Source: Dehalococcoidia bacterium (lineage in GTDB: Bacteria; Chloroflexota; Dehalococcoidia; Lucifugimonadales; VXLM01). From it: 64,000 nt of DNA. Under the pieces are notes generated by a model. It had not been told where the DNA came from, ran no database searches, and saw nothing but the letters and a program-made list of their open reading frames with translations. Both the position numbers and the translations under genes were made by a program. Below are positions 1,731 to 54,459 of the stretch, piece after piece; position 1 is the first letter of the stretch, and each line of letters begins with the position of its first letter. The stretch is from contig OZ244816.1 in the NCBI GenBank assembly GCA_965220255.1, positions 779,720 to 843,719 of the forward strand, written 5' to 3'.

Positions 1731-2405
1731 TCAGTTAGCCGCAGTCAGATCCTTGAGCACGTTCTCCCATTCGGCAGGACTGCCCTGTCCGAAGCCGGAA
1801 CGGTAGACAATTACGCCGTTTCCGTCGATGGCGACCTTAGTGGACTGTCGGGTGACGTTGAAGTCTTCAATCATGTTATCGCTTGGCGTCGCCACTTCTC
1901 CAACATGCCCACTCCTGTTCTGGGCCGCCGACAGGATGTCCAGAGATTCATTAAACGCGACGGCGTAGAGATCGACCGAGTCCTCAAAGGGCGGATACAC
2001 GGTGGTCAAGCCCCGCAACGCGGAGCGACAGTCCGATCACCAGGTGGCGTGGAACAGGATGAATACCGGTTTCCCCTCGGACACGAGATCGGTCGAGTTG
2101 ACGGACCGGTCGCCAGTGAGGGCCAGCATGTAGTCGGGCGCGCGGTCGCCGACACGGTGTCCGACGGGGACGGTTTCCTCGGAAGGCGCGGGCGCAGGAG
2201 CCGCAGTTGGTTCAGGAGCGGCCGCGGGCGGCGGGGAAGTCTGCGCTGCGGGTGGAGGAGGCGCAGACGCCGGTGAGGTCGCAGTCGTGTCGGCGGGTTG
2301 GGACTCGCTGGAAGAACCGGAGTCGCTTCCGCATGCGACAGCGGCGAGCAAAGAAAGCGCCGCGACAGAGACAACGACGTATCGAATGGTGGTTACGCGG
2401 TTCAT
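1731..2405 (-). CDS. TlpA/ResA-like thioredoxin-fold lipoprotein, predicted selenoprotein (Sec = TGA 2037..2039, motif W-U-S-D-C)
   Basis: ORFs 2037..2405 and 1731..2018 share one frame and are joined only by TGA. Lipobox LAAVAC-G. ...GKPVFILFHATW-[TGA]-SDC sits at the W-C-x-x-C position. The rest of the thioredoxin fold continues after the TGA. A hairpin lies 10 nt downstream. Confidence 0.7.
2010..2036 (-). other. Putative bacterial SECIS element (10-nt spacer + hairpin gcuccgc-guu-gcggggc)
   Basis: Immediately 3' of TGA 2037..2039; 26 nt identical to the paralogue at 2867..2892; 7-bp stem, G/U apical loop. Confidence 0.55.
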
Positions 2406-2434
2406 GGCGATGTCACCTCCACGATCTTGTTAGT

Positions 2435-2487
2435 GGATTCCCGCCCCGTATCGAGTACGGGGTGACGTTCTTCCGGGGGAATGACGG
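2435..2487. repeat. REP-A hairpin, long variant (ggattcccgc-[ccccgta..tacgggg]-..gggggaatgacgg)
   Basis: Same nested form at 3784 and 49686; short form at about 15 other sites. Confidence 0.75.
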
Positions 2488-2535
2488 CATGGGGGCTGTG
2501 TTCTCGGACATGCACATCATGCCTCCAGTCTTTCC

Positions 2536-2562
2536 GGATACCGGCCTCCGCCGGTATGGCGG
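2536..2562. repeat. REP-A variant (ggataccggc-ctcc-gccggtatggcgg)
   Basis: Same architecture as 18611, 40793. Confidence 0.65.
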
Positions 2563-2584
2563 TAGTGATCCTTGCAAGCGTCTC

Positions 2585-3688
2585 CTATTGTACGCTGTTG
2601 GCCAGTTCTTGGAGGACGGCGGCCCACTCGGCCGGGCTGCCTCGTCCGTAGCCGCTACGGTAAGTGATTACGCCGTTCCCGTCGATGGCCACCTTGGTGG
2701 ACTGCTGCGTCACTCTGAAGTCTCTGACCATGTTCCCCACAGCCCTGGCCACCGTACCGGCATGACCGCTCTCGTTCTGGTAGGACTGCAGAACGCTGAG
2801 AGGCTCGTCGAAGGCCACGGCGTAGAGGGCCACCTTGTCCTTGAACTGTGGATAGATCTCCGTCAGGCCCCGCAACGCGGAGCGACAGTCCGGTCACCAC
2901 GTTGCGTGGAACAGGATGAAGACGGGCTTCCCCTGCGCCACAAGGTCGGTGGAACTTACCTGGCTGCCTCCCGCAATGTTCAGGACATAGTCGGGAGCGA
3001 GATTGCCGACATTCGTGCCGGGCTGGGCAGTGACGGCAGATCGAGTCGGCTCAGGTTCCGGAACGGAAGTGGGAGTCGGCGGGACGGGCGTATACGTCGG
3101 GGTGGGCGGCACGGGCGTGTTCGTGGGTGTCGGAGGGACAGGCGTCGGAGTCGGAGGCAGCGGAGTTGGAGTAATCGTAGGCGTGGACGTGGACGTCGGA
3201 GTAGGCGTGCGAGTCGGCCTTGGGGTAAACGTGGGAATGAATGTCGCCGTAGCGGTTGGGGTGGGCTCGGCCGCGGCCTGTCCGTCCGATGTCGATGCGG
3301 GCACTGTGGGCGGGACTGACGTGGGCGTTGCCGTGGGAACAGGTGTTGAAGTTGGTAAGACAGGCGTCGCGGTTGAAGTGGAAGTGGGGACCGTCGTCGG
3401 CGTGGCTGTCGACGGCTCCGTGGTTGCGGTGGGTTCAGGCGTTGGGGGCGTCGTTGGAGTTGGGACCGGAGCCGGGGTTGAGGTCGGCGGCTGAGGCGTC
3501 GGTTCCGTGGTAGCCGTGGGTTCCGGCGTGTTGGTTGGTATTGCTGTAGGAACGGACTGCGCTAGAGGGGTAGCCGGTTCGTCGGCGCTCTCCTCAGGGG
3601 CACTGTCGGACTCGCCGCCGCAAGCAATGACGGCCACCGTCAACATGGTCAGCAGCCAATAGACCGATATGTGGATGAAGCGCTTCAT
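2585..3688 (-). CDS. TlpA/ResA-like thioredoxin-fold lipoprotein with long Pro/Thr linker, predicted selenoprotein (Sec = TGA 2894..2896, motif W-U-P-D-C)
   Basis: ORFs 2894..3688 and 2585..2875 share one frame and are joined only by TGA. Lipobox AVIAC-G. ...GKPVFILFHATW-[TGA]-PDC. The C-terminal half is homologous to the copy at 1731..2018. Confidence 0.7.
2867..2893 (-). other. Putative bacterial SECIS element (same hairpin as 2010..2036)
   Basis: Block cggactgtcgctccgcgttgcggggc is identical in both paralogues while flanking codons differ at wobble positions. Confidence 0.55.
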
Positions 3689-3783
3689 TGAGTCCCGTCT
3701 CTAACGTTACGTTACCACTCGATTATACCGAGGGAAGGCTTAAAAAGTGAAAAGTTGGTAAACAGAGGGTGCATTCTGAAGAT

Positions 3784-3836
3784 GGATTCCCGCCCCGTAT
3801 CGTGGTACGGGGTGACGTTCTTTCGCGGGAATGACG
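3784..3836. repeat. REP-A hairpin, long variant
   Basis: ggattcccgccccgtatcgtggtacggggtgacgttctttcgcgggaatgacg. Confidence 0.75.
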
Positions 3837-13070: not shown

Positions 13071-14402
13071 CTGACAGGGGTAGGTATTTCGTATTTTAGG
13101 TATCAGTGCCATAGATCATCCTCAGATTTGGCGACGGTTCGGGCCAAGCTTCAGGAAGCAGCCAGACCCTCTGCCACAGCCTGCCTTTGAGCAACAGACG
13201 ATTCAGCCAAATGATGCCCTGACGCAATACGCTTACAATCCGTCTCGGTCTGTTTGTGGCACTTCGATGTGTGGGCGAGACAAACTTCGGAGGCGCTCTG
13301 AGACGACTAGGGTTTACGCCCAAGCCGCTGGCATCTTCGACTCTGGTCCCATATGCCAGCGCCAATAGAGTTGACACAGACAACACCAGCCAATGACGAC
13401 TGACCCGTTCGGGATCTGTCCGGCGAGTCTTCTGCCATTGCCACCCAACGCTCTTGATCGCTTTGAAGCCCAGTTCTATCCAGAAGCGAAGTGCGTACCA
13501 GCACACCCCAGCTTCAGCAGGTGGGAGATCTGTCATCACAACCCATGGCTCTTGTTGGTCTTTGTCCCAGACCACAATCATTGTCCCCCGACGGCGTATG
13601 CTTGTGGCCCTGAACGCGGTCCCACCACCAACCCATGCGTGACCCGGCCCTGGTACGAGATACCGCGCTGGCAGACGAGTCCCTCCATCAGGACAGAAGA
13701 CGGTGTTGATCGACTGTCGTACGTAGGGATGCCACCCCGAAGAGCGTATCTGCTCCCACAACCTCGGACTCCTCAGACCACGGTCGCACATCACCAGCAC
13801 AGTCTTGTCCTTTGGGACCGCCGAAGACAGCAACGCCAGCAAGTCCACCACAGGGGATATCCACTGTCCGGGACTGTTGGCGGGAAGAATGTGCCAGGCA
13901 ACCGGAATGGCACAACTGCGATAGACCACGCTTATGACTATGGAGTTTAGCTTGTCGGCCTTCATCGTCGGGTCTATAGCTAACACTAGCCTGTCCGACT
14001 GCCACAATGACAGTACCCACCTCAACAGCGGAACAAAGCACGACCTCACATCCAATTGCACTTGGCAGGGCTTAGAACGGTCTTGACCATCGTAGAGCCA
14101 CTCTCTGATGTACTGACGCAGACTGTTGTAGTTACCCATAACCGAAAGGGCTGCACTGACAGCGTTCTGGCAACTACTCCCGGCCAGTATGGTCCCGTAC
14201 ACCCACAGAACCAGTCCTTTTATCTGAGAGTGTCTGAGCTGAGGCATGTGTTGTTCGACAGTCTGGAGCATCTGGTAGCATTCAGGTGGGAGGCGCATGG
14301 CGAATCTCTGGCAACCTTTCTGTCTGATACCAAAAAGATGCCAGAAACCCATGCGCTTTCCAAGTTCTTATACTTATTTTATATTTTACCTACCCCTGTC
14401 AG
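13071..14402 (-). mobile_element. Intact IS4-superfamily insertion sequence (1332 bp), 16-bp perfect terminal IRs ctgacaggggtaggta, 11-bp TSD cccccgccggg
   Basis: IRs at 13071..13086 and 14387..14402. Direct repeats at 13060..13070 and 14403..14413. Single transposase ORF. CTGAC termini as in IS10/IS50. Confidence 0.8.
13096..14352 (-). CDS. DDE transposase, IS4 superfamily
   Basis: 418 aa; LAIDPT (D), VLVMCDRG (D), YALRFWIELGFKAIK = Y-x2-R-x3-E-x6-K signature. Confidence 0.85.
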   Translation of the reverse strand: MGFWHLFGIRQKGCQRFAMRLPPECYQMLQTVEQHMPQLRHSQIKGLVLWVYGTILAGSSCQNAVSAALSVMGNYNSLRQYIREWLYDGQDRSKPCQVQLDVRSCFVPLLRWVLSLWQSDRLVLAIDPTMKADKLNSIVISVVYRSCAIPVAWHILPANSPGQWISPVVDLLALLSSAVPKDKTVLVMCDRGLRSPRLWEQIRSSGWHPYVRQSINTVFCPDGGTRLPARYLVPGPGHAWVGGGTAFRATSIRRRGTMIVVWDKDQQEPWVVMTDLPPAEAGVCWYALRFWIELGFKAIKSVGWQWQKTRRTDPERVSRHWLVLSVSTLLALAYGTRVEDASGLGVNPSRLRAPPKFVSPTHRSATNRPRRIVSVLRQGIIWLNRLLLKGRLWQRVWLLPEAWPEPSPNLRMIYGTDT

Positions 14403-49648: not shown

Positions 49649-49740
49649 GCGTTCAGAGTCGGTGAGAGAAATACCTCGCGCCTTCAGATTCCCGCCCCGT
49701 ATCGCTGTACGGGGTGACGTTCTTTCGCGGGAATGACGGT
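49649..49740. repeat. REP-F-like element (left IR gcgttcagagtcggtgaga + long REP-A 49686..49739), right IR not recognisable
   Basis: Shares left arm and internal hairpin with 12187/37649. Confidence 0.5.
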
Positions 49741-53922: not shown

Positions 53923-54459
53923 ATGACGACGATGTTGGAAGTGTTCGACCCGACGGTTGACCCGATACCCGCGCATGGAGTGGTCGCCAAGCGCCCTGAC
54001 ACGCTGAACGGGGCCGTCGTTGGCCTATTGGCGAATGGCAAGCAGAACGCCGACGAACTCCTCGAAATGGTGCATGACGTTCTCGCCGACCAGTTCGAGT
54101 TCAAGGCCGTCATCGCCCGCAACAAGGGGAACGCATCCCGCCCATGTCCCACGGACATCGTGGACGACCTGGCCTCAAGCTGCGACGTGGTGATCACCGG
54201 GAACGGTGACTGAGGGTCCTGTTCATCGTGCAGTGTGCACGACGGAATCACCCTTGAGAAGGCCGGTCTGCCGACAGCGGTGATCTGCACGGAGCCGTTC
54301 ATACCGAGCGCCCGCGCCATGGCGAAAATCCAGGGCATCCCCGACTATCCGTACATCATCCTTCCGCATCCGCTGGGCAGTCTGACGCCGGGCGAGCTTC
54401 GCAGTCACGCGGTCAAGATTGCCCCCGAGGTGCTGAGCATCCTGCTGGGGAAGGGGTAG
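53923..54459 (+). CDS. UGSC-motif protein, predicted selenoprotein (Sec = TGA 54211..54213)
   Basis: ORFs 53923..54213 and 54235..54459 share one frame. Read-through gives ...VVITGNGD-U-GSCSSCSVHDGITLEKAGLPTAVICTEPF...PHPLGSL. A hairpin lies 12 nt after the TGA. The 178-aa total fits my recollection of the UGSC (seleno)protein family. Confidence 0.7.
54214..54242 (+). other. Putative bacterial SECIS element (12-nt spacer + hairpin ucgugca-gug-ugcacga)
   Basis: Perfect 7-bp stem with G/U loop at the canonical distance from the TGA. Confidence 0.5.

Follow-up and report, generated by a model that had tools for sequence, protein, structure and literature searches.

A tandem pair of probable selenoprotein genes for TlpA-like lipoproteins in a Dehalococcoidia bacterium

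We analysed a 64,000-nucleotide stretch of a Dehalococcoidia genome (assembly GCA_965220255.1, contig OZ244816.1, positions 779,720 to 843,719; hereafter the window), in which two adjacent minus-strand genes, gene 2 (2585..3688) and gene 1 (1731..2405), are each interrupted by an in-frame TGA codon. The evidence makes it highly probable that both encode selenoproteins in which the UGA is decoded as selenocysteine (Sec, U), and that gene 2 specifies an exported, membrane-anchored, thioredoxin-like redox enzyme. An earlier reading, made by a model from the letters of the DNA and a list of its open reading frames (ORFs), had drawn attention to the pair; we refer to it as the sequence-only reading.

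Two tandem genes and the domain that spans their TGA

Gene 2 appears in the ORF list as two minus-strand pieces, 2894..3688 and 2585..2875. As the sequence-only reading had reported, with peptide strings that match ours exactly, the pieces share a single frame and the TGA at 2894..2896 is all that separates them. Read through, the frame runs ...GKPVFILFHATW-[TGA]-PDCRSALRGLTEIYPQFKDKVALYAVAF... and, on the basis of this translation and of Pfam matching, 2585..3688 (-) forms a complete selenoprotein coding sequence of 367 amino acids, including Sec265, that ends in a TAG stop. The TGA at 2894..2896 (-) occupies the first position of a W-U-P-D-C redox motif and aligns with the first, nucleophilic cysteine of WCxxC proteins, including the Cys of full-length homologues with the motif WCPxC (P0017 and P0044-P0053). 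Gene 1, a tandem paralogue of 224 amino acids defined by translation and Pfam matching, carries Sec123 in the motif W-U-S-D-C and ends at a genuine TGA stop. Its Sec codon, placed by read-through translation and comparison with homologues, lies at 2037..2039 (-), and the frame across it runs ...GKPVFILFHATW-[TGA]-SDCRSALRGLTTVYPPFEDSVDLYAVAF.... The claim that both copies carry the same interruption, W-[TGA]-P-D-C, therefore holds to the letter for gene 2, whereas gene 1 has Ser in place of Pro. The downstream pieces of 95 and 96 amino acids had also been described as ATG-initiated; they begin instead at TTG, which is a Leu codon within the loop of the hairpin described below.

Both proteins begin with what, by inspection, looks like a lipoprotein signal: MKRFIHISVYWLLTMLTVAVIA-C in gene 2 and MNRVTTIRYVVVSVAALSLLAAVA-C in gene 1. 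In gene 2 the signal peptide (3620..3688 (-), translation inspected by eye) consists of MKR, a hydrophobic core and the lipobox V-I-A-C ending at Cys23, and the segment ..AVIACGGE.. is kept in the N-terminal fragments of orthologues. Other than the lipobox Cys, the U-x-x-C pair provides the only Cys or Sec residues in each protein. A low-complexity linker of about 198 amino acids (3023..3619 (-)), defined by a composition of 30% Thr and 29% Pro, follows the signal peptide of gene 2; the linker of gene 1 has 54 amino acids and is rich in Pro, Ala and Ser. Orthologues have a much shorter linker, their whole N-terminal piece being 110-125 amino acids as against about 200 for the linker alone in gene 2. 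Short tandem repeats of 27 and 21 nucleotides (nt) at 3069..3172, within the gene 2 linker, suggest that it expanded recently.

The C-terminal part of gene 2 (2588..3010 (-)) encodes a TlpA/ResA-like catalytic domain with a thioredoxin fold, as indicated by Pfam, by sequence matches to solved structures and by an AlphaFold (AF2) model of P0017. With the TGA position filled with Cys for Pfam matching, AhpC-TSA (PF00578) matches amino acids 227-343 of gene 2 at 46.5 bits (cutoff 26), over profile positions 1-123 of 124 and with the TGA inside the match; it also matches amino acids 85-201 of gene 1 at 40.0 bits. PF08534 matches gene 2 at 28.6 bits (cutoff 26.6). Because a single domain match crosses the TGA, one thioredoxin-fold domain spans it. 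Although PF00578 is the top match, we rejected a peroxiredoxin assignment, since the sequence lacks PxxxTxxC and has a partner Cys of the CxxC type. By inspection, the segment P-V-F-I-L-F-H-A-T-W-U places Thr at -2 and Pro at -10 from the Sec, with the partner Cys at +3.

NCBIfam returned sub-threshold matches only, among them NF002854 (ResA, 48.6 against 170 bits) and TIGR00385 (DsbE, 36.1 against 123 bits), and by these scores, far below the curated cutoffs, we class the protein as a relative rather than an equivalog. The top relatives of solved structure by sequence are ResA 4nmu (2e-10) and DsbE/CcmG, with 2g0f, 2b1k and 3k8n also matched. For the fold itself we relied on the AF2 model of P0017, a full-length Cys homologue that is 52% identical. 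In that model the domain has a predicted local distance difference test score mostly of 65-90 and shows a thioredoxin fold with an N-terminal beta-hairpin and a central insertion, its (C/U)xxC motif lying at the N terminus of helix alpha1. Foldseek aligns the P0017 model with ResA at template modelling (TM) scores of 0.82-0.85 and a root mean square deviation of about 2 A, with CcmG and Mycobacterium tuberculosis DsbE and DsbF, and, at a TM score of about 0.75, with the pneumococcal surface lipoprotein thioredoxins Etrx1 and Etrx2.

Conservation, selection and a probable recoding hairpin

To follow the TGA through related genomes we assembled 39 copies of the gene from Dehalococcoidia/Chloroflexota loci: the window pair, 24 first copies and 13 second copies. 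When one genome of each GTDB species was scanned, 23 loci emerged, every one in Dehalococcoidia/Chloroflexota metagenome-assembled genomes (MAGs), and a scan of metagenomes added two more, one of them truncated, for a gain of one informative locus. The TGA stands at the redox site in every one of the 39 copies, across amino-acid identities of 38-87% and independent MAGs, which bears out the earlier argument that a TGA shared by diverged copies speaks against a sequencing error or a recent pseudogene. In 13 loci a second tandem copy is present, again with its TGA. The arrangement of AGXT-like aminotransferase, gene 2, gene 1 and 2-hydroxyacid dehydrogenase is largely kept over the 15 loci L001-L015, the exceptions being a single copy in four loci and no aminotransferase match in two. 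Given the tandem copies with TGA and this synteny, the duplication is old and the pair is conserved in the Dehalococcoidia lineage.

Protein collections hold the same family in pieces. Our protein search recovered 26 clusters of C-terminal fragments of about 96 amino acids, 17 clusters of N-terminal fragments ending ...FILFHATW, and a single full-length relative, P0017, which has WCPVC at the active site. An exhaustive HMMER search with P0017 yielded further full-length Cys forms with WCPxC (P0044-P0053) as well as about two dozen representative clusters of 80-99-amino-acid fragments that start just past the CxxC position, which is the pattern that split Sec forms would give. The window and its homologues form a Sec/Cys pair, W-UGA-P-D-C against W-C-P-x-C in P0017 and P0044-P0053. 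Like the window pair, the P0017 gene (locus L026) has an Aminotran_5 gene in its vicinity, although four transposase genes stand between that gene and the P0017 gene.

Two further observations concern these relatives. The ORFs called for P0044, P0058, P0059 and P0075, in other organisms, comprise the C-terminal part of a TlpA-like domain, a Pro/Thr linker and the N-terminal part of a following domain, with ...ATW, ...HATY or ...FASF at their ends; their sequences suggest multi-domain polypeptides with several Sec or mixed Cys/Sec active sites. On OY763089.1 (Dehalococcoidia) a whole block of SDR, aminotransferase, a single TlpA-like selenoprotein gene and 2-hydroxyacid dehydrogenase occurs twice, at about 1.30 Mb (L004) and about 1.33 Mb (L006), roughly 37 kb apart and in inverted orientation, which reflects a segmental duplication or else an artefact of assembly.

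Selection was measured by the Nei-Gojobori method as the ratio of nonsynonymous to synonymous substitution rates (dN/dS), separately for the segments before and after the TGA as the sequence-only reading had proposed. Comparison of the two paralogues, for which dS exceeds 1, gives a dN/dS of 0.17 for the segment before the TGA and 0.26 for the one after it, neither of them near 1; against 15 orthologues the values are 0.04-0.31 before and 0.10-0.45 after. Protein-level constraint on the region past the TGA, which had been claimed from the similarity of the two copies, is thus upheld both between the paralogues and among the orthologues.

A hairpin resembling a bacterial Sec insertion sequence (bSECIS) follows the UGA within the coding sequence of both genes, so that the search for such an element, which the sequence-only reading had called for, finds one that is under evolutionary constraint. 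In gene 2 it occupies 2867..2883 (-), has the sequence GCUCCGC-GUU-GCGGGGC and starts 10 nt past the UGA, as supported by minimum free energy (MFE), shuffling and comparison; a lower stem may extend it to about 2860..2888. Folding and sequence place the hairpin of gene 1 at 2010..2026 (-), with 17 nt identical to those of gene 2. When the U of the UGA is counted as position 1, the hairpin covers nt 14-30 in both genes of the window. The 17-nt hairpin has an MFE of -10.7 kcal/mol, and none of 200 shuffles folds as well. A published bSECIS model (PMC13188914) sets a loop of 3-9 nt, a stem of 4-16 base pairs (bp), a G within the first two loop positions, a UGA-to-loop distance of 16-37 nt and an MFE of no more than -7.5 kcal/mol. 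The window hairpin falls within this model, with a GUU loop (or C-GUU-G, following the N1-G-U-N-N2 pattern), a 7-bp stem and 17 nt from UGA to loop.

Comparison across copies points the same way. Among 17 sequences, codons +4 to +9 (R, S, A, L, R and G/S) each use one codon with zero synonymous variation; all are 4- or 6-fold degenerate, and the same amino acids use 2-5 codons elsewhere in the gene. Only UUG or UUA encodes the Leu of the loop, in a genome of 61% GC. Over the 39 sequences, 90.7% of the cells in the alignment are paired, compared with 29.6-62.5% in slid controls. Pair 16:28 covaries in the same set (UG in 16, UA in 10, AU in 5, GU in 2 and GC in 1), and in the eight sequences that break pair 15:29, position 15 pairs with 30 instead in all eight, leaving a 1-nt bulge.

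How the UGA is decoded

TGA is a normal stop codon in the window, where it ends gene 1 and many well-formed genes with high GC at third codon positions. A scan of the window for TGAs flanked on each side by sequence that looks coding brought up one further strong case, at 54211..54213. The gene around it (53923..54459 (+)) carries the motif GNGD-U-GSCSSC, is divided in the ORF listing into a 96-amino-acid ORF and an 81-codon continuation, and scores 155 bits (cutoff 125) against NCBIfam NF041046, 'UGSC family (seleno)protein'. A hairpin with a 7-bp stem and a GUG triloop lies 12 nt past its TGA, in a region with a folding z of -3.05. By its match to a curated family we count it as a third predicted selenoprotein gene. 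Only these three TGAs in the window combine in-frame coding sequence on both flanks with a hairpin of this kind 10-12 nt further on. It is probable that this organism decodes Sec. Selenoproteins have been reported in Chloroflexi (PMC1794560), and Sec-containing formate dehydrogenases have been predicted in marine Dehalococcoidia (PMC5736913).

Several results weigh against decoding as Sec, or against the enzyme that we propose. A search for selA, selB, selD and tRNA-Sec, which could cover the 64-kb window and 25 short related loci but not the rest of the genome, found none of them, and this is the chief weakness of the case; neither Rfam at its gathering threshold nor ARAGORN found any RNA gene in the window. 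In the hairpin essentially a single base pair carries the covariation, the remaining core pairs being invariant and uninformative either way, and the hairpins of distant orthologues are weak when folded alone (-4 to -6.5 kcal/mol). The wider region of 45-57 nt past the TGA folds no better than shuffles (z of -0.04 to -1.8), and we therefore rely on the minimal 17-nt hairpin together with the comparative evidence. The near-universal cis-Pro of thioredoxin-fold oxidoreductases appears to be Ser, within an invariant QQSTKVAID: alignments to two solved structures, independent of each other, pair this Ser with the Pro of ResA 4nmu (GPLPTSF) and with that of 2m72 (LIPAVF), a correspondence at the level of alignment. 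All Sec forms have Ser at this position, and the Cys homologues have either Ser or Ala. With the cis-Pro apparently replaced, the chemistry may differ from that of ResA. Finally, no gene for a redox partner or substrate is adjacent, so that the function is read from fold and topology only.

Among the alternatives, the one that fares best, improbable though it is, has the UGA read through by a near-cognate tRNA-Trp or tRNA-Cys, with stimulation by the hairpin and no need of SelB. A hairpin placed after a stop codon is in general able to promote read-through, and the lack of Sec machinery in the window and related loci would fit such a process. Trp at this position would, however, destroy the CxxC-type active site, and the hairpin agrees with a SelB-type bSECIS in both loop sequence and spacing. 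A gene of the curated UGSC selenoprotein family, with a comparable hairpin, lies in the same window and also speaks for Sec, as do the pairs of Sec and Cys homologues, a classic selenoprotein signature.

Slightly less probable again is that the UGA is a true stop, so that translation yields a lipoprotein cut short about 40 residues past its signal and linker, and perhaps a distinct C-terminal peptide of 96 amino acids started at TTG, with the full-length protein rare or absent. Public gene callers annotate exactly these two pieces, and bacterial Sec insertion is generally inefficient, so that some truncated product is expected anyway. Termination would nevertheless cut the thioredoxin fold between strand beta1 and the active-site helix, inside the one Pfam domain that spans the site, and the piece past the TGA is under purifying selection and in frame with the piece before it. 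In distant orthologues the TTG is replaced by TTA, which is not a start codon; together with the spanning domain, this disfavours the possibility, raised by the sequence-only reading as one that would count against its own view, that the downstream pieces are expressed as separate proteins. Only recoding explains why a stop codon is kept at the position of the catalytic Cys in all 39 copies. Reading the gene as a pseudogene, as the product of a sequencing error or as a sign that TGA is reassigned throughout the genome (code 4 or 25) has nothing in its favour beyond the in-frame TGA itself and is effectively refuted by the identity of the TGA in 39 copies from independent assemblies, by dN/dS far below 1 on both sides of it, by the use of TGA to end gene 1 and many other well-formed genes of the window, and by a GC content of 61%, which is atypical of code 4 and code 25 lineages.

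The surroundings of the pair add little about function. Its neighbours encode an AGXT-like aminotransferase, a 2-hydroxyacid dehydrogenase, an SDR and a DHDPS-like protein, and give no functional clue; the arrangement with the aminotransferase and the 2-hydroxyacid dehydrogenase as neighbours is kept in 15 loci. No ccdA/dsbD, resBC or ccm genes were found in the neighbourhood within the window. A consensus scan gave a sigma-70-like promoter match, TTCACT-18-TATAAT (3722..3751 (-)), 34 nt upstream of the ATG of gene 2, which is weak evidence for a promoter. Antisense to the Pro/Thr linker of gene 2 lies an ORF of 370 amino acids rich in Gly, Arg and Val (2207..3319 (+)), which is almost certainly no real gene but a shadow of this GC-rich, repetitive linker. 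Elsewhere in the window, a DDE_Tnp_1 transposase gene is present at 13096..14352 (-).

A nested-palindromic repeat of about 52 nt (CGTCATTCCCGCGAAAGAACGTCACCCCGTAnnnCGATACGGGGCGGGAATC) occurs upstream of each of genes 1 and 2 (about 2434..2486 (-) and about 3783..3836 (-)) and a third time at an unrelated intergenic site (about 49686..49738 (-)). We considered it as a specific regulator of the pair and rejected this in view of the third copy (49708..49736) and because the one 31-nt core pattern that we searched has no exact match in the 25 related loci. A simple palindrome pattern search found nothing. It looks like a genome-specific element resembling repetitive extragenic palindromes or miniature inverted-repeat transposable elements, and not like a regulator of genes 1 and 2.

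Proposed function and known relatives

If the UGA of gene 2 is decoded as Sec, the hairpin that begins 10 nt past it in the coding sequence would bring SelB-GTP-Sec-tRNASec to the ribosome, in the manner known from other selenoprotein mRNAs of bacteria, and Sec would be inserted at UGA265 in a SelB-dependent manner. The prolipoprotein would then be exported through the Sec pathway, lipidated at Cys23 and anchored on the outer face of the cytoplasmic membrane, where the long Pro/Thr tether would display the catalytic domain outside the membrane. Sec265 would act as the attacking nucleophile, and the Sec265/Cys268 couple would reduce extracytoplasmic disulfides or oxidised substrates before being re-reduced by a membrane electron shuttle of the CcdA/DsbD type, presumably encoded elsewhere in the genome. 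We consider a role of the proteins as extracytoplasmic thiol/selenol-disulfide reductases the likelier assignment, with a good deal less assurance than we attach to Sec decoding itself.

The kind of protein is already known, UxxC selenoproteins of the Prx-like/TlpA-like thioredoxin fold being long-established predicted families. A family listed as 'Prx-like 1, pfam00578, UxxC' comprises 225 sequences in the GOS collection (PMC2398784), and a 'Prx-like thiol:disulfide oxidoreductase' and a 'thiol-disulfide isomerase-like, cd02966, UxxC' family are listed in PMC13188914. The window proteins share with these families a PF00578 match above threshold, Sec in the leading Cys position of CxxC, a bSECIS that directly follows the UGA, numerous Cys homologues and a predicted activity as thiol oxidoreductases. 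They differ, in a comparison made by description, in being lipoproteins with a Pro/Thr tether, in forming a conserved Dehalococcoidia tandem pair, in the motifs FHATW-U-PDC-RSALR and QQSTKVAID (with Ser at the expected cis-Pro), and in having no dedicated NCBIfam model.

With ResA of Bacillus and CcmG/DsbE, the thiol-disulfide reductases of cytochrome c maturation, they have in common a membrane-tethered topology and a WCxxC-type motif at the start of a helix. Unlike those proteins, they have Sec for Cys, U-P-D-C rather than C-x-P-C and Ser for the cis-Pro, and no ccm, resBC or ccdA lies nearby. Etrx1 and Etrx2 of Streptococcus pneumoniae (4hqs, 2yp6 and 4hqz) are likewise lipid-anchored, extracytoplasmic TlpA-like domains and offer a plausible functional analogy, by which the window proteins might reduce extracellular Msr or oxidised surface proteins. 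The pneumococcal proteins differ in using Cys, in lacking a long Pro/Thr tether and in being encoded beside ccdA and msrAB, neighbours that are not seen here. The hairpin, for its part, resembles the SECIS of the Escherichia coli fdhF type and the bSECIS consensus of Zhang and Gladyshev (PMC13188914) in its place within the coding region, directly 3' of the UGA, and in having G-U opening a small apical loop. It differs from the fdhF type in its unrelated sequence, in a GUU triloop on a GC-rich 7-bp stem, and in the 1-nt bulge on the 3' side in distant orthologues; SelB binding to it is a prediction.

What is specific to this clade is the lipoprotein with its tether, the conserved tandem pair, the Sec codon in all 39 Dehalococcoidia copies found, the lack of a curated model and the consistent mis-annotation as two fragments. 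We raise tentatively, as a conjecture that we think more likely to be wrong than right, that these proteins form a distinct, unnamed Sec subfamily of marine, possibly sponge-associated, Dehalococcoidia. Such a subfamily would have an obligate-Sec, lipid-anchored, long-tethered TlpA-like domain without the cis-Pro, an ancient tandem pair and, in some relatives, multi-domain fusions with several Sec, and its role might lie in extracellular oxidant defence or cell-surface repair rather than in cytochrome maturation.

The finding does not alter what is known of selenoprotein families or of the recoding mechanism. Its use lies first in annotation: gene callers routinely split this kind of selenoprotein in two, and all but one of 43 close relatives in the searched protein collection are present as two nameless fragments (about 96 and about 118 amino acids) with no Pfam domain assigned. 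Recognition of the Sec codon would restore a complete redox enzyme and add three selenoprotein genes to the 64-kb stretch. The case also illustrates how a SECIS hairpin embedded in coding sequence can freeze both codons and amino acids (R-S-A-L-R) just past an active site. For the Dehalococcoidia, it indicates that this lineage uses Sec, and places it in redox proteins that are exported and tethered to the cell surface.

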